Origin: a virus
Lineage: Duplodnaviria; Heunggongvirae; Uroviricota; Caudoviricetes
Strand: one strand, 5' to 3'
Length of the DNA: 8,888 nucleotides
IMG/VR virus record: IMGVR_UViG_2526164617_000010
Part shown: positions 1,156-8,558 of the stretch, in pieces
Position numbering within the stretch: position 1 is the first letter of the stretch
Layout of the letters: each line of letters starts with the position of its first letter
Position numbers and translations under genes: made by a program
Notes under the pieces: generated by a model
Databases searched by the model: none
The model's input: the letters and a program-made list of their open reading frames with translations, nothing else
Told to the model about the DNA's origin: nothing

Positions 1156-1344
1156 TTAAAAAAAGAACAAATGGTAGTGTCCGCTATTGCCAGTACACCT
1201 CAGGGTATAAGGGGTTATGGCCACCGGACTACCAAACGGCTGCCAGCCCTCTTTCAGTTTATGTGTCAGCTTTTCCGCAAGATCTGACGGCGGCGCCGCC
1301 CTGACAACATCATAGTGTTTAAATGCCATGGTTCTTTCCACCAT
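1156..1344 (-). CDS. Small prophage-type ORF (possibly DUF1737-like); only 1203-1344 is native, the last 14 codons are encoded by the IS600-like terminus
   Basis: Track ORF MVERTMAFKHYDVVRAAPPSDLAEKLTHKLKEGWQPFGSPVAITPYTL|RCTGNSGHYHLFFF. The junction with the IS end (1202/1203) falls in codon 48. GGAAAG lies upstream of the internal ATG (MAFKHY...). The family assignment is a weak recollection. Confidence 0.4.
   Translation of the reverse strand: MVERTMAFKHYDVVRAAPPSDLAEKLTHKLKEGWQPFGSPVAITPYTLRCTGNSGHYHLFFF
1171..1202 (+). repeat. IS600-like right terminal inverted repeat
   Basis: The reverse complement TGAGGTGTACTGGCAATAGCGGACACTACC aligns with TGAGGTAGCCTGAGTTTAACGGACACTCC at 8159-8187 (positions 1-6 and 20-27 identical). 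Confidence 0.6.
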
Positions 1345-1589: not shown

Positions 1590-1925
1590 ATGAAGTGGAT
1601 TGTGATTGATACAGTTATCCAGCCATCATGCGGAATATCTTTTTCAGTCATATGGAGTAAAATAAAATTAATAATCTGGTATCAATCGGATGCTTTCTTA
1701 CCTCCTGAAAGTATATTTACACTGACTCACACAGGCATCATGCTCAATAACAAAGTGCTACCTGTAACCATTTACAACGTAGTACCATTCAATAAAACAT
1801 TCTGGAATTCAATCAAAAATAGCCAGGAATGCCCTACAAATACAGATAACGTATTGAATGAATGCTTTAATAACCGTTGCACTCTGCAAATATGTCCTTA
1901 TGGACTAAAACAACAAAGTCCATAA
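1590..1925 (+). CDS. Hypothetical 111-aa protein in an AT-rich island (no family recognised)
   Basis: ATG is preceded by AAGGAAA with about 6-nt spacing. The ORF ends inside a 12-bp perfect hairpin. Composition is I/N/W-rich with a Cys-rich C-terminus (ECPTN...[16 protein letters not shown]), and 6 of 13 Ile codons are ATA. It could be a chance ORF in AT-rich DNA. Confidence 0.3.
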
Positions 1926-1940: not shown

Positions 1941-1981
1941 CTGACAAAATCAATATAAACAGCCCCTCCGGAGAGGGGCTG
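1941..1981 (-). terminator. Rho-independent terminator for minus-strand transcription (GC-rich hairpin plus T-tract)
   Basis: Stem CAGCCCCTC / GAGGGGCTG (1960-1968 / 1973-1981) with loop CGGA. On the minus strand it is followed by TTTATATTGATTTTGTC (1959 down to 1943). There is no T-tract on the plus side. Confidence 0.55.
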
Positions 1982-2261
1982 GAGAGTGGCGCTATGTGCC
2001 ATTGCATGGTGCCGGGTGCCTCCCGGTGAATTCAGTACCAGCACCTGAATCCGCGATTATCCCATATACCTACTCGCTGATTGCCCCTCCGCACAGGGGG
2101 ATTCACCATGCCAGTTTCTTTTAACAAACTCCCCGCAAACCAGACAACAGTCAACCGCCTGAATTGTGAAGTATTTAAAAATTTCTCCCGCTAACTGATA
2201 CCCGGCTAACAGTCTGGCGTTTTCTTTTTCAGCAACGGGAAAGCAACAACCACCACACCCG

Positions 2262-2269
2262 CCACCAGC
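2262..2269 (-). other. Chi octamer (5'-GCTGGTGG-3' on the minus strand)
   Basis: The plus strand reads CCACCAGC at 2262-2269. It is the only Chi I found in the window, embedded in a CA-rich tract (2244-2287). Confidence 0.9.
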
Positions 2270-2372
2270 ACACCGTCAGCCAGCACTGACATTATCCGGC
2301 TGCTGCAATGCCATTCACAAAAACAGTAAGCAATCACTTTTTACCGTAACAGGTGATAATCCAGATATGTAT

Positions 2373-2726
2373 CTACCCCAGATGAGTAATCCGAAGTTCA
2401 TCCATACCACAGGTCCTGGCTATTCTGTTGTACTCCTGAACAAGAGCAAATAATTCTGAATTAGCAACCATGAACTCATCGCAAACCCTCTGTATAGCAT
2501 CACTATTCAGAATAATAACGTCTCTTCCCGAAAGACGATCAGGAGTACAGAACAAAACTGTCAAACGGCTGAAGGCCTTTGCTCGTGCTGCATTGACTAT
2601 ATCAATACGCTGCCTAAGGATGAAACACCCCGACGCCTCATCAATATTCACTCTACCCACACCATATGAATGATAAATATTTAATGCTGAAAAAACCATT
2701 AGACCGTATAACAAACACTCAATCAA
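2373..2726 (-). CDS. Hypothetical protein, 117 codons from TTG (108 aa from the ATG at 2699); unrecognised cargo ORF downstream of the phage tRNAs
   Basis: Longest ORF in the region and co-directional with Q and the tRNAs. Six of 11 Arg codons are AGA/AGG and 3 of 11 Ile codons are ATA, matching the adjacent tRNA specificities. No convincing Shine-Dalgarno before either start. No family recognised. Confidence 0.35.
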   Translation of the reverse strand: MIECLLYGLMVFSALNIYHSYGVGRVNIDEASGCFILRQRIDIVNAARAKAFSRLTVLFCTPDRLSGRDVIILNSDAIQRVCDEFMVANSELFALVQEYNRIARTCGMDELRITHLG

Positions 2727-2836
2727 TACTTAACAGAACTTTTATTTTTGACAAACATAAAATATTTTCAACAATATCCTGAGCCAGGTATATTTCAGTA
2801 TAAGGCTCTGCCGGAAGGAATCTGGAAGAATGAATA

Positions 2837-2913
2837 TGGCGCGCTGTACTGGATTCGAACCAGTGACCGATTGCTTAGAAGGCAATTGCTCTGTCCGGCT
2901 GAGCTAACAACGC
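2837..2913 (-). tRNA. tRNA-Arg (anticodon UCU, reads AGA), phage-type variant
   Basis: Hand-folded cloverleaf: acceptor GCGTTGT/ACAGCGC (one G-U pair), D-stem GCTC/GAGC, anticodon stem ATTGC/GCAAT with loop CTTCTAA, T-stem ACTGG/CCAGT with loop TTCGAAT, discriminator G, encoded CCA. 77 nt. Confidence 0.9.
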
Positions 2914-3013: not shown

Positions 3014-3089
3014 TGGTGGCCCTTGCTGGATTTGAACCAGCGACCTGGCGATTATGAGTCGCTCGCTCTCACCACTGAGCTAAAGGGCC
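3014..3089 (-). tRNA. tRNA with anticodon CAU, most like tRNA-Ile2 (lysidine type, reads AUA); elongator tRNA-Met not excluded
   Basis: GGCCCTTTAGCTCAGTGGTGAGAGCGAGCGACTCATAATCGCCAGGTCGCTGGTTCAAATCCAGCAAGGGCCACCA. Acceptor GGCCCTT/AAGGGCC, T-loop TTCAAAT, anticodon loop CTCATAA. Closely resembles the E. coli ileX/ileY sequence as I recall it. 76 nt with encoded CCA. Confidence 0.85.
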
Positions 3090-3124: not shown

Positions 3125-3152
3125 CAATAAAAAACCCGCTCGGCGGCGGGTT
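3125..3152 (-). terminator. Rho-independent terminator between Q and the tRNAs (candidate tR')
   Basis: The minus strand reads AACCCGC-CGCCGA-GCGGGTT followed by TTTTATTG: a 7-bp GC-rich stem, 6-nt loop and U-tract. Confidence 0.6.
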
Positions 3153-3191: not shown

Positions 3192-4046
3192 TTATGACGA
3201 ATTTACCACAGATTCCGGAAAAATCAACCTAGTTACCTTTTTTAACTGCCGCTCAGCCCATGCTTCTTCAATATCAAACCGGGTCACCAGCGCATCATAG
3301 AATTTCTTAACTGTTTTTTCCCATGACGCGCGTGTTATCTGGTTTGTCACCTCGCATATAGCATTAAATGCCTCCGTTGATGGTAGTCTTTCATAGCCAC
3401 GACCACCACAACGCTGGCAGTCTCTGATAACAGGCATACCACGTTTTACCGACTCTTCACGATGAATGGCGACACCACGCCCACGGCAATCCTTACAGGC
3501 GGTGGAAACCTCACCCTTTCCGCCACACTCCGGACAGGCAACTTTTACCACCTCCCTGACTTTTTTCCATTCTTCCCAGTAAGACGGATACACACCTTTC
3601 GTACACTTTGCCCATACCGGCGGCTTACCATCCGGATACTGGACCTTGTTTGTAAAAACTACGCTTTCAATAAATTTTTCCCCATAGCAACAAGGGCACT
3701 GCTTTTTACTCGCTGCGCTGCGGGCATAATCCTCAAAAGCGTACGAAGCCATAATGCGCATCACTACCGGTTTTATTTCTGCCGGAAGTTTTCTCAACGC
3801 CGCCACACGATCGCACCGACTGAGTGCATAATCTGCCAGTAATTCTGTTGCCCGCGCCCTGTCATTCATACTGATGCCCATTTTCCCCAGGAACGCAGAA
3901 AACCCCATCTCAGCCCGATTCTGTGTCATGCCCTGCGCGGCCATCACATCAGTGATACTCAGCGCATCTTTTGACGTTGAGGCCGATGCATCGGTCAGGC
4001 AAGGGGATTTTGGGGAGTAGTATTTCGGTAAATCTTCCAGTTTCAT
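3192..4046 (-). CDS. Q: Late-gene antitermination protein Q (long, zinc-binding Q family of phage-82/Stx-phage type)
   Basis: 284 aa. N-terminus MKLEDLPKYYSPKSP...DVMAAQGM and three CxxCxGxG motifs (CPECGGKG, CKDCRGRG, CQRCGGRG). The start overlaps the rusA stop (ATGA). Followed by a candidate pR'/tR' and phage tRNAs, as in lambdoid late regions. Confidence 0.8.
   Translation of the reverse strand: MKLEDLPKYYSPKSPCLTDASASTSKDALSITDVMAAQGMTQNRAEMGFSAFLGKMGISMNDRARATELLADYALSRCDRVAALRKLPAEIKPVVMRIMASYAFEDYARSAASKKQCPCCYGEKFIESVVFTNKVQYPDGKPPVWAKCTKGVYPSYWEEWKKVREVVKVACPECGGKGEVSTACKDCRGRGVAIHREESVKRGMPVIRDCQRCGGRGYERLPSTEAFNAICEVTNQITRASWEKTVKKFYDALVTRFDIEEAWAERQLKKVTRLIFPESVVNSS
3200..3227 (-). 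promoter_or_regulatory. Candidate sigma70 late promoter (pR'-like) overlapping the 3' end of Q
   Basis: The minus strand reads TTGATT (3227-3222), a 16-bp spacer, then TAAATT (3205-3200). The predicted start is about 40-65 nt upstream of the candidate tR' hairpin. This is motif-level evidence only. Confidence 0.3.
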
Positions 4047-4417
4047 TTTTTGACCTGCTCTTCATGCATTATGGGGTAAATCTTCACCCCCAGACGTCCA
4101 CCAGATACTGGCTGACCACGAACGATATTGATTTCATCAAACTGCTCATCGTCCATTAACACTCCCGCATGTGTCAGTGCATCCAGTGGTGCTTTCAGGA
4201 TATTGTCCAGGTCACGACGGCGCTTATCCGGTGGCTCTGCAATAATCTTTATCGCCAGTCTTCCGGACAGGCTTAATTTCAGTCGCTGCTGACGGACAAT
4301 AAGCGCCACATCCCGGCGATAACGCTCACCGGCTTTTGATACAAAATATGTGTTGTCACGACGTCGCCAGTAAGTATTCACCGTCGGCGGATAAGGTAAA
4401 ATAAACTCATGGCGCAT
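4043..4417 (-). CDS. rusA: Holliday-junction resolvase RusA (crossover junction endodeoxyribonuclease)
   Basis: 124 aa; the PDKRRRDLDN motif and overall sequence closely parallel E. coli RusA. Start overlaps the upstream gene's stop (TGATG). Confidence 0.9.
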   Translation of the reverse strand: MRHEFILPYPPTVNTYWRRRDNTYFVSKAGERYRRDVALIVRQQRLKLSLSGRLAIKIIAEPPDKRRRDLDNILKAPLDALTHAGVLMDDEQFDEINIVRGQPVSGGRLGVKIYPIMHEEQVKK

Positions 4418-4674
4418 CAGCGCAGCACCTCCTGCACCAGTTTTTCAAACTTTCCGACTCTGGTTTCCAGCTCTGCCACACAGTCCACCAGCTCATCTAC
4501 TGCTTTCTGTGCGCGATGCTTCGCCTGCATCAGTTCCCGAAGCGCGGGTACCATATCTTTACGGATAGCGTCTTTTGTTATGCCCGTTTTTTCGAGTTGT
4601 TCAGCATGACGCAGCATTTCCTGCGCGTGTTTACGCAATTGTTCAGGGGTAAAAGTCATTGTCTGGTTGTTCAA
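4417..4674 (-). CDS. Hypothetical prophage protein (predicted helical, coiled-coil-like); start may be the ATG at 4659 rather than the TTG at 4674
   Basis: ORF translationally coupled to rusA. Charged, helical composition (…EQLRKHAQEMLRHAEQLEKTG…AELETRVGKFEKLVQEVLR). No family recognised. Confidence 0.55.
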   Translation of the reverse strand: MNNQTMTFTPEQLRKHAQEMLRHAEQLEKTGITKDAIRKDMVPALRELMQAKHRAQKAVDELVDCVAELETRVGKFEKLVQEVLR

Positions 4675-4789
4675 AAGAAACGCTCCATCTTACTGCTGTC
4701 AGTTCGTTTATTACTGTATCTGCGCGGATTGCCGGGCTTCATGGGAGTGGAAAGCACCCGTGCACTTTCCTGGTCCACAGGCAGAAAAT

Positions 4790-4794
4790 GTCCG
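4790..4794. repeat. IS2 target-site duplication, left copy (GTCCG)
   Basis: Identical pentamer at 8118-8122 abutting the other IS2 end. IS2 makes 5-bp duplications. Confidence 0.85.
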
Positions 4795-5008
4795 TAGACT
4801 GGCCCCCTGAATCTCCAGACAACCAGTATCACTTAAATAAGTGATAGTCTTAATACTAGTTTTTAGACTAGTCATTGGAGTACAGATGATTGATGTCTTA
4901 GGGCCGGAGAAACGCAGACGGCGTACCACACAGGAAAAGATCGCAATTGTGTCAACGCCACGATGTTTGACCGTTATTTGCCATTTTCATGCCCGCTAAA
5001 TACTTTCG

Positions 5009-6951
<1,943 letters not shown>

Positions 6952-7193
6952 GTTGATGTCCTTTCTGGTGTGAGAACCTTAAGGAAACAACATGGTGTAG
7001 CAGCCAGCCAGTTATTTCTCTGGCGTAAGCAATACCAGGAAGGAAGTCTTACTGCTGTCGCCGCCGGAGAACAGGTTGTTCCTGCCTCTGAACTTGCTGC
7101 CGCCATGAAGCAGATTAAAGAACTCCAGCGCCTGCTCGGCAAGAAAACGATGGAAAATGAACTCCTCAAAGAAGCCGTTGAATATGGACGGGC

Positions 7194-7200
7194 AAAAAAG
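7194..7200 (+). promoter_or_regulatory. IS2 programmed -1 frameshift heptamer (A AAA AAG) at the insC/insD overlap
   Basis: AAAAAAG read in the insC frame (codons AAA AAG at 7195-7200). The insD frame opens at 7200. Confidence 0.7.
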
Positions 7201-8106
7201 TGGATAGCGCACGCGCCCTTATTGCCCGGGGATGGGGAGTAAGCTTAGTCAGCCGTTGTCTCCGGGTGTCGCGTGCGCAGTTGCACGTCATTCTCAGACG
7301 AACCGATGACTGGATGGATGGCCGCCGCAGTCGTCACACTGATGATACGGATGTGCTTCTCCGTATACACCATGTTATCGGAGAGCTGCCCACGTATGGT
7401 TATCGTCGGGTATGGGCGCTGCTTCGCAGACAGGCAGAACTTGATGGTATGCCTGCGATCAATGCCAAACGTGTTTACCGGATCATGCGCCAGAATGCGC
7501 TGTTGCTTGAGCGAAAACCTGCTGTACCGCCATCGAAACGGGCACATACAGGCAGAGTGGCCGTGAAAGAAAGCAATCAGCGATGGTGCTCTGACGGGTT
7601 CGAGTTCTGCTGTGATAACGGAGAGAGACTGCGTGTCACGTTCGCGCTGGACTGCTGTGATCGTGAGGCACTGCACTGGGCGGTGACTACCGGCGGCTTC
7701 AACAGTGAAACAGTACAGGACGTCATGCTGGGAGCGGTGGAACGCCGCTTCGGCAACGATCTTCCGTCGTCTCCAGTGGAGTGGCTGACGGATAATGGTT
7801 CATGCTACCGGGCTAATGAAACACGCCAGTTCGCCCGGATGTTGGGACTTGAACCGAAGAACACGGCGGTGCGGAGTCCGGAGAGTAACGGAATAGCAGA
7901 GAGCTTCGTGAAAACGATAAAGCGTGACTACATCAGTATCATGCCCAAACCAGACGGGTTTAACGGCAGCAAAGAACCTTGCAGAGGCGTTCGAGCATTA
8001 TAACGAATGGCATCCGCATAGTGCGCTGGGTTATCGCTCGCCACGGGAATATCTGCGGCAGCGGGCTTGTAATGGGTTAAGTGATAACAGATGTCTGGAA
8101 ATATAG
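7200..8106 (+). pseudogene. insD: IS2 insD (DDE transposase) carrying a 1-bp insertion frameshift
   Basis: Track ORFs 7200-8003 and 7924-8106 together cover InsD but in two frames. The span is 907 nt instead of 906, and GGGTTTAACGG at 7956-7966 has one more T than the sequence needed to encode ...[15 protein letters not shown]... in one frame. Confidence 0.8.
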
Positions 8107-8222: not shown

Positions 8223-8558
8223 ATGAGCAGAAAAACCCAACGTTACTCTAAAGAGTTCAAAGCCGAAGCTGTCAGAACGGTTCCTGAAAATCAACTTTCG
8301 ATCAGTGAAGGCGCTTCCCGATTATCTCTTCCTGAAGGCACTTTAGGACAATGGGTTACCGCCGCCAGAAAAGGGCTCGGTACTCCTGGTTCCCGCACGG
8401 TGGCTGAACTGGAATCTGAAATTCTGCAACTGCGTAAGGCGTTAAATGAAGCTCGCCTTGAGCGAGATAATATTAAAAAAAGCAACAGCGTATTTTGCAC
8501 AGGAGTCGCTGAAAAATACGCGTTAATCGAACAATGGGCGACAACAATTTCCCATTGA
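8223..8558 (+). CDS. IS600-like transposase OrfA (HTH N-terminus intact; C-terminus appears frame-shifted in this copy)
   Basis: MSRKTQRYSKEFKAEAVRTV...ELESEILQLRKALNEARLERD, then an atypical tail NIKKSNSV...TTISH. The conserved IS3-family ending ILKKATAYFAQESLKNTR is encoded one frame over from 8470. An A7G slippery run lies at 8475-8482. Confidence 0.7.
   Translation: MSRKTQRYSKEFKAEAVRTVPENQLSISEGASRLSLPEGTLGQWVTAARKGLGTPGSRTVAELESEILQLRKALNEARLERDNIKKSNSVFCTGVAEKYALIEQWATTISH

Follow-up and report, generated by a model that had tools for sequence, protein, structure and literature searches.

We analysed a window of 8,888 nucleotides (nt), the whole stretch of DNA of the IMG/VR virus record IMGVR_UViG_2526164617_000010, which is assigned to Caudoviricetes. 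We found that the open reading frame (ORF) at 2373-2726 on its minus strand, here called X, is a genuine and conserved protein-coding gene and more than a product of chance. X belongs to the protein family phrog_2873, and its coding sequence probably begins at GTG 2651 and encodes 92 amino acids. The comparison of related loci supports X as an accessory, moron-type cargo gene of the variable interval that heads the late operon of lambdoid prophages, where the Shiga toxin (Stx) phages carry stxAB. In addition, its richness in AGA, AGG and ATA codons is a by-product of AT-rich, horizontally acquired DNA and not the result of tuning to the adjacent phage tRNA genes. All coordinates refer to the plus strand of the window, and handles such as L011 or L105 denote the related loci compared.

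From TTG 2726 to the stop codon at 2373-2375, the ORF has 117 codons, including 11 Arg codons (3 AGA and 3 AGG) and 11 Ile codons (3 ATA), and these figures agree exactly with the initial annotation, which had been made from the letters of the window. That annotation had left room for a chance ORF or a decayed remnant, had proposed dN/dS and the conservation of homologues as checks, and had held that frame-breaking indels in close relatives would speak against a gene. Over the last 92 codons, the ratio of nonsynonymous to synonymous substitution rates (dN/dS, or ω) was 0.27, 0.22 and 0.31 in the three pairwise comparisons among the alleles of the window, L003 and L011, which share 59-63% protein identity, with dS of 0.9-1.1. 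Between the window and L003, the differences at codon positions 1, 2 and 3 numbered 35, 33 and 55 over 116 aligned codons. Furthermore, the proposed frame is the only stop-free frame across nine lineages, down to about 21% identity, and the other frames are stopped in at least eight of the nine. Selection is also visible at short range. Among 83 near-identical copies, the 279-nt core has 10 variable sites with six synonymous and five nonsynonymous alleles; nonsynonymous changes thus make up 5 of the 11 variant alleles, where neutrality would predict 77% (P = 0.022 for five or fewer). The core of these copies contains no indel and no stop codon, and their flanks are mosaic. The gene is therefore under purifying selection and keeps an intact frame in relatives across genera, which contradicts both a chance ORF and a decayed remnant.

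An antisense ORF at 2470-2673 (plus strand), which reaches up to 95 amino acids in L011, was also considered and rejected: its frame is stopped in eight of the nine lineages, and its low ω mirrors the shared third codon positions.

The view that X is a chance ORF in a non-coding, AT-rich spacer and is not translated is hardly credible on these results. It can appeal to the missing Shine-Dalgarno (SD) sequences at the two starts first proposed, to RefSeq, where the Prokaryotic Genome Annotation Pipeline (PGAP) placed no feature over X in any near-identical genome among the matches listed, and to the lack of a Pfam or NCBIfam match. However, an ω of 0.22-0.31 at saturating dS, a single open frame in nine lineages, the good SDs of distant homologues and the confident structural model described below all stand against it.

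The family assignment is clear. Residues 1-92 of X matched positions 17-108 of the 108-position profile of phrog_2873 (E = 5.6e-58, 194.8 bits). All 10 diverse family members that we tested matched the same profile, and 9 of them also matched phrog_4827. X resembles phrog_2873 in size, in the predicted helical hairpin and in its prophage origin, so that it is an ordinary member of this family; the profile takes in 16 positions upstream of the presumed true start. The initial annotation could not assign X to any family. This holds only in part, as X clearly falls into phrog_2873, but that family is itself uncharacterised. A protein search recovered relatives that align over the full length with 56-63% identity, as well as others that are further removed. 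When 1.84 billion representative proteins were searched exhaustively with a profile, 21 relatives emerged, and a second search, of a 5.8-billion-protein set, gave 40 clusters from six enterobacterial genera. The relatives have 91-99 amino acids and occur in Escherichia, Citrobacter, Salmonella, Serratia, Morganella and Xenorhabdus, and R23, N64 and N75, all of them polar, do not vary within the family. Meanwhile, Pfam, NCBIfam and PADLOC scans of X and the 10 family members gave no family. A tblastn search of 50,697 phage records returned only mEp460_ev081, which carries the same allele, and the scan of genome contigs gave two loci only. One distant member (P0030, 21% identity) lies in a Mu-like tail module, which is another late-operon site, and it was not used for functional inference. 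In addition, a homologue with 62% identity is encoded on a 2.7-kb contig (L024, JAEWMQ010000075.1) that was binned as a Bacillota metagenome-assembled genome but is probably enterobacterial phage DNA placed in the wrong bin.

The two starts proposed in the initial annotation, TTG 2726 (117 codons) and ATG 2699 (108 codons), are both probably wrong, and the conserved coding unit is 2373-2651 with 92 codons. Outside the closest E. coli alleles, the relatives start at the equivalent of window codon 26, that is GTG 2651, and they align to 2373-2651. The 25-codon leader is absent from all homologues beyond these closest alleles. In L011, the 29 codons upstream are open and contain no ATG, GTG or TTG, and an AGGAG lies 5 nt before the GTG. 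Distant homologues also carry good SDs (GGGAG, GAGGGG and AGGAG). The leader itself (75 nt, 2652-2726) evolves unlike the core: its ω is 0.92 against L011 and 0.65 against L003, and in the 83 near-identical copies five of its six variable sites are nonsynonymous in the frame of X. When the 117-residue form was modelled with AlphaFold2 (AF2), residues 1-23 were predicted to be disordered, with a predicted local distance difference test (pLDDT) score below 50. It had been remarked earlier that neither TTG 2726 nor ATG 2699 has a clear SD. We likewise found none before either codon, and this is easy to understand if the real start is GTG 2651. Thus, the combined sequence comparisons give strong grounds for placing the start there.

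The window covers, on the minus strand, part of the late-control region of a lambdoid prophage. Its features are as follows.

4043-4417, minus strand: rusA.
3192-4046, minus strand: late antiterminator gene Q (PF03589 Antiterm, E = 7e-55).
3200-3227, minus strand: candidate late promoter pR' (TTGATT-16-TAAATT with an upstream TG), overlapping the end of Q; putative, from 8 of 12 matches in a relaxed hexamer scan.
3133-3152, minus strand: intrinsic terminator, candidate tR', 40 nt past the stop codon of Q; a 7-pair stem with 5 G-C pairs, then TTTTATTG.
3014-3089, minus strand: tRNA with a CAU anticodon (ARAGORN; Rfam, 72.5 bits), labelled tRNA-Ile (Ile2 type) by PGAP in the 99.6% identical RefSeq locus L002.
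2837-2913, minus strand: tRNA-Arg(UCU) (ARAGORN; Rfam tRNA, 68 bits).
2727-2836, minus strand: AT-rich spacer between tRNA-Arg and the ORF, with a weak sigma-70-like match (TTGAAA-16-AAAAAT, 2771 to 2744).
2652-2726, minus strand: 25 codons previously counted as the N-terminus, most likely a 5' untranslated leader.
2373-2651, minus strand: coding sequence of X, 92 amino acids, probable GTG start at 2651 and TAG stop at 2373-2375.
2206-2337, minus strand: TciB-like small membrane protein (DUF3927; PF13064, E = 1.7e-27), 36 nt downstream of X.
1951-2140, minus strand: match to the small RNA (sRNA) family STnc100 (Rfam, 132 bits; gathering score 47).
1590-1925, plus strand: iraM-like gene (IraM-family anti-adaptor by its RefSeq name; phrog_4407, E = 3e-72).
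1156-1344, minus strand: DUF1737 gene, followed by an insertion sequence (IS), IS1.
303-1000: IS1 (insA/insB), standing beyond the DUF1737 gene in place of the holin and lysin region.
5009-6951: IS21-family istA/istB pair upstream of rusA, beside or within an IS3-family element.
6802-8003: IS3-family element upstream of rusA.
8-292 and 8223-8558: IS3-family fragments.

The candidate pR' is followed by a strong intrinsic terminator about 50 nt further on, which is the layout expected of pR'/tR', and an analogous pair occurs in the Serratia locus L105. The STnc100 match lies directly downstream of the TciB-like gene and is convergent with the 3' end of the iraM-like gene. The latter has 70% DNA identity to K-12 iraM and sits on the opposite strand within the prophage late region; the iraM locus of K-12 was checked, and no copy of X was found there. 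An Rfam scan of 2373-2836 found no RNA family inside, and on this result the prophage sRNA HnrS (PMC13502914) was dropped as an alternative content of the region. A terminator-like hairpin at 2519-2537 was treated as chance since it lies inside the coding sequence and has only three G-C pairs.

In Stx phages, stx lies downstream of Q and upstream of S-R-Rz, under the control of pR' (PMC8065619). The order in the window is Q, terminator, tRNAs and X, all on the minus strand. The initial annotation placed X in this Stx-equivalent slot, co-directional with Q and the tRNAs, and the related loci agree with it down to about 21% identity, including those of Citrobacter and Serratia and the Stx-phage-like context of L005. 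L006 is likewise among the loci that support the recurrent position, and in the phage mEp460_ev081 X also lies between Q and the lysis genes. The arrangements, in which X lies within this interval or beside it, are the following.

80 IMG/VR loci of E. coli: mostly RusA, Q, X, TciB-like gene, (IraM), DUF1737 gene, holin.
L011 (E. coli): Q ... methyltransferase, YdeO-like AraC regulator, X, TciA, TciB, holin.
L013 (Citrobacter): Q ... tRNA-Thr ... X, TciA, TciB, holins, endolysin.
L105 (Serratia, about 21% identity): Q, pR'-like promoter, terminator, three tRNAs, terminator, X, terminator, two small genes, lysozyme.
L112: holin and lysozyme follow X directly.
L113 and L114: X just after the lysis genes.
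L005 (Shiga toxin-producing E. coli, STEC): 59% allele after a YdeO-like regulator; the late region around it resembles that of Stx phages and contains nanS-p, DUF1378 and DUF826.
L017-L020 (plasmids): tRNA-Thr and a terminator, then X about 580 bp further downstream, with a K88-like fimbrial operon next to it.

X adjoins the TciB-like gene in 78 of the 80 IMG/VR loci. The DUF3927 gene of the window is a homologue of TciB (phrog_1470, profile positions 23-51 of 54). Alignment of window 2206-2372 to L011 6280-7038 and L013 6289-7063 showed that tciA has been deleted in the window and that tciB lacks its 5' third. The TerB-like gene of L011 and L013 is 86.5% identical to TciA of phage P1, in which the tci genes are non-essential (PMC10695390). 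Furthermore, the GC content of X is 41-44% as against 49% for Q and rusA, its flanks are mosaic and its neighbours vary. At the equivalent place, X is absent from JLK-2012 and P1. Such a deviating composition and such presence in only some related phages are features of a moron.

Two of these contexts have further features. In the plasmid loci L017-L020 (about 5347-6276), tRNA-Thr(UGU) and the terminator are kept upstream, and the fimbrial operon has a PapB regulator; the arrangement resembles a piece of late-region phage DNA that a plasmid has taken up. In L003 (164-889), L011 (5142-5870) and L005 (4164-4889), a YdeO/GadX-like AraC regulator stands immediately upstream of X. It belongs to phrog_1450 and matches the YdeO model of NCBIfam with E = 4e-35, which falls short of the curated cutoff, and it may be a prophage regulator of the PsrA/PsrB/PatE type, acting on acid resistance or type III secretion.

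The initial annotation read the AGA/AGG (AGR) and ATA codons of X as usage matched to tRNA-Arg(UCU) and the CAU-anticodon tRNA, and it described the enrichment as unusual for E. coli-type genes. The geometry is as described: tRNA-Arg(UCU) ends 110 nt upstream of TTG 2726, and both tRNAs are co-directional with the ORF. The E. coli genome averages are about 7% AGR and about 8% ATA. Against these averages, on which the P values rest, the excess in the 92-codon gene is significant (P = 3e-4 for AGR and 0.03 for ATA; 4e-5 and 0.05 for the 117-codon ORF). However, the enrichment disappears when X is set against its own base composition. The 92-codon gene has AGR in 5 of 10 Arg codons and ATA in 3 of 9 Ile codons, where its composition predicts fractions of 0.42 and 0.33 (P = 0.42 and 0.61), and over the ORF variants the expectation is 42-45% AGR and 33% ATA (P = 0.36-0.75). 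So the enrichment is significant against the genome average only, and the match to the tRNAs is not borne out. In addition, most of the rare codons occupy variable residues and differ between the alleles of the window, L003 and L011. The L003 allele has only 2 of 9 AGR and 1 of 7 ATA, although its STEC prophage (L005) has tRNA-Ile and a tRNA-Arg, and the alleles that adjoin tRNA-Thr(UGU) have 0-1 ACA codons and no matching bias. Other AT-rich cargo, such as the AraC-like gene of L011 and the iraM-like gene of the window, uses rare codons equally or more often. It should be noted that base composition needs to be taken into account before a richness in AGA, AGG and ATA beside phage tRNAs is interpreted as co-adaptation.

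A wider form of this idea is that the codons of X are adapted to the adjacent tRNAs, or that X is coupled with these in its function and possibly has a tRNA-related role. X does lie about 0.2-2.3 kb downstream of differing sets of tRNAs in the window, L005, L006, L013, L017 and L105, and half of its Arg codons and a third of its Ile codons are of the rare kind. We nevertheless regard such coupling as very improbable, given the compositional expectation, the unconserved codons and the L003 and tRNA-Thr alleles described above; moreover, no tRNA was found in the sequence examined of L011, L008, L009, L112, L113 and L114. The co-location is explained if X and the tRNAs are both cargo of the same post-tR' interval.

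As for expression, the initial annotation suggested a Q-dependent cargo gene, and this is plausible. In the window, there is no terminator between the tRNAs and X and none after X. In L013, L006 and L105, X is preceded at a distance of 55-130 nt by a terminator, with no promoter match between, and another lies downstream of X in L011, L013 and L105; no promoter match was found at X in L011, L013 or L105. Since the relatives are insulated by terminators and have no convincing promoter of their own, the layout gives moderate grounds for thinking that X, like stx, is transcribed by Q-antiterminated read-through. In L105, seven terminator-like hairpins occur within 1.45 kb (4250-5700), from Q to the lysis genes, against 1.5 expected, and the small cargo genes there each appear to be individually insulated.

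Alternatively, X could be a moron of the lysogenic-conversion type, which would have a promoter of its own, be expressed in the uninduced lysogen and benefit the host, for example together with the AraC/YdeO-like regulators, IraM or TciAB. Its AT-rich composition is typical of morons (PMC8065619). The sigma-70-like site at 2771-2744, the terminator downstream of X in L011 and L013, the plasmid copies by the fimbrial operon and the YdeO-like regulator immediately upstream in L003 and L011 point the same way. However, the promoter match is at chance level (the scan of the window gave four sites in 1.3 kb, against 2.0 ± 1.5 expected), the upstream terminators of L013, L006 and L105 have no promoter between them and X, and in L003 X begins only 21 nt past the stop codon of the AraC gene. 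We regard this alternative as unlikely.

The 92-residue protein has a mass of 10.4 kDa and a pI of 5.7; it is slightly acidic and predicted to be soluble. AF2 modelling with a 22-sequence alignment gave a pLDDT of 89 and a predicted template modelling score (pTM) of 0.75, with helices at residues 3-34 and 50-81, and the modelled fold class is an antiparallel two-helix hairpin. No informative structural match to the model was found. Among the systems compared were small helical hairpins such as Rop, which assemble into four-helix bundles, and helix 1 of GapR. In a profile search of PDB sequences, the GapR/UPF0335 family (DUF2312) gave a weak match to GapR helix 1 (E = 0.056), and it was rejected because X has no Pfam DUF2312 match, no structural support and an acidic character. 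No catalytic, membrane or nucleic-acid-binding signature was found in X, and the PADLOC-DB defence models gave no match at E ≤ 0.1 for X, the TciB-like protein, TciA of L011 or the AraC-like protein of L011.

Based on these results, we propose the following explanation. X is a real gene of a lambdoid prophage and a member of phrog_2873, most probably translated from GTG 2651 into 92 amino acids. The interval runs from Q through pR'/tR' and the phage tRNAs to X, then to tciA/tciB and other cargo, and finally to holin and lysin. X would be transcribed mainly within the Q-antiterminated late transcript by terminator-resistant RNA polymerase, following the logic known for stx. The protein would bind to a partner protein, for which it would likely first pair into a four-helix bundle, and would serve as a dispensable host-modulating or phage-fitness factor in lytic growth. 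The codon usage is driven by composition. We consider this explanation as a whole to be reasonably probable. Its last part, that X is a small protein-binding accessory factor of late lytic growth, is a tentative suggestion, since it derives mainly from the absence of catalytic, membrane and nucleic-acid signatures.

A more specific role can also be imagined. Rather than a casual moron, X may be a conserved first-wave late protein of many enterobacterial lambdoid phages, with a particular job tied to its place by the tRNAs and the lysis cassette. The position is kept to about 21% identity across genera, often with tRNAs just upstream, a plasmid copy keeps tRNA-Thr, and R23, N64 and N75 are invariant, all of which bears on this idea. 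We consider it improbable. Examples of such a job would be the neutralising of a host factor that attacks tRNAs or translation late in infection, or a new type of anti-defence or of lysis-timing modulation.

Several points weigh against the proposed explanation. First, the SD before GTG 2651 is degenerate in the window allele (TGGGT or GGTG), where L011 has AGGAG, and in the closest alleles (window and L003) the upstream 25 codons stay open and the TTG is conserved. With its SD degraded, the window allele may be weakly translated, or an N-terminally extended form may be made in this lineage from the upstream TTG. Second, the lysis genes have been lost to IS1, and elements of the IS21 and IS3 families stand upstream of rusA, so the prophage copy of the window is a remnant, and its X may be silent. 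Third, the weak sigma-70-like site upstream of X could drive expression independent of Q, and the plasmid-borne copies must be expressed without Q.

Another view is that the family is real but the window allele is a decaying pseudogene of a defective prophage. The change of AGGAG (L011) to TGGGT, the deletion of tciA and of the 5' third of tciB, the IS elements that break the prophage and the missing PGAP call all fit it. However, 1172 of 5426 complete E. coli genomes, CFT073 (NC_004431.1, 1342739-1343017) among them, carry the 279-nt core with an identity of 99% or more, and a match occurs in 1,314 E. coli genomes. The 83 copies show a synonymous excess between mosaic flanks without any stop or indel, and the same allele occurs in the phage record mEp460_ev081. 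Decay of the window allele is thus quite unlikely.

X is already catalogued, as a PHROG member and among the hypothetical proteins of GenBank, yet it is uncharacterised, and these results hold no surprise for a phage specialist. In GenBank, submitters have annotated a 108-residue hypothetical protein on more than 1000 contigs, with a start codon that is probably wrong. In RefSeq, the 76% identical allele is annotated as a hypothetical protein, and the 63% allele is entered as 'MULTISPECIES: hypothetical protein' with 92 amino acids. A search of the literature on DUF3927, phrog_2873 and Tci found nothing on X. The outcomes of this study are a corrected gene model, the rejection of the inference from codons to tRNAs, and a documented conserved position in the Stx-equivalent slot. 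X recurs as cargo of the interval under Q control in which Shiga toxin is also carried, and it is therefore a cheap candidate for probing the role of non-toxin cargo there.

Compared with known systems, X shares with stxAB-type cargo the place downstream of Q, tR' and the tRNAs and upstream of holin and lysin, the co-directional orientation, the AT-rich composition and the mosaic flanks. In contrast, Stx has no sequence or fold relation to X, and X is cytoplasmic with no evident signal peptide. X also differs from a sporadic moron, because it recurs at the same place across genera down to about 21% identity. The tRNA and tciA-tciB-tciC cluster of phage P1 is a further parallel: X is followed by a P1-like TciA and then TciB in L011 and L013, and in P1 and the lambdoid phage JLK-2012 the tRNA genes are linked with tciAB as they are in X loci. 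However, P1 and JLK-2012 have no X gene, and X also occurs without tciAB, in L105, L112 and L017.

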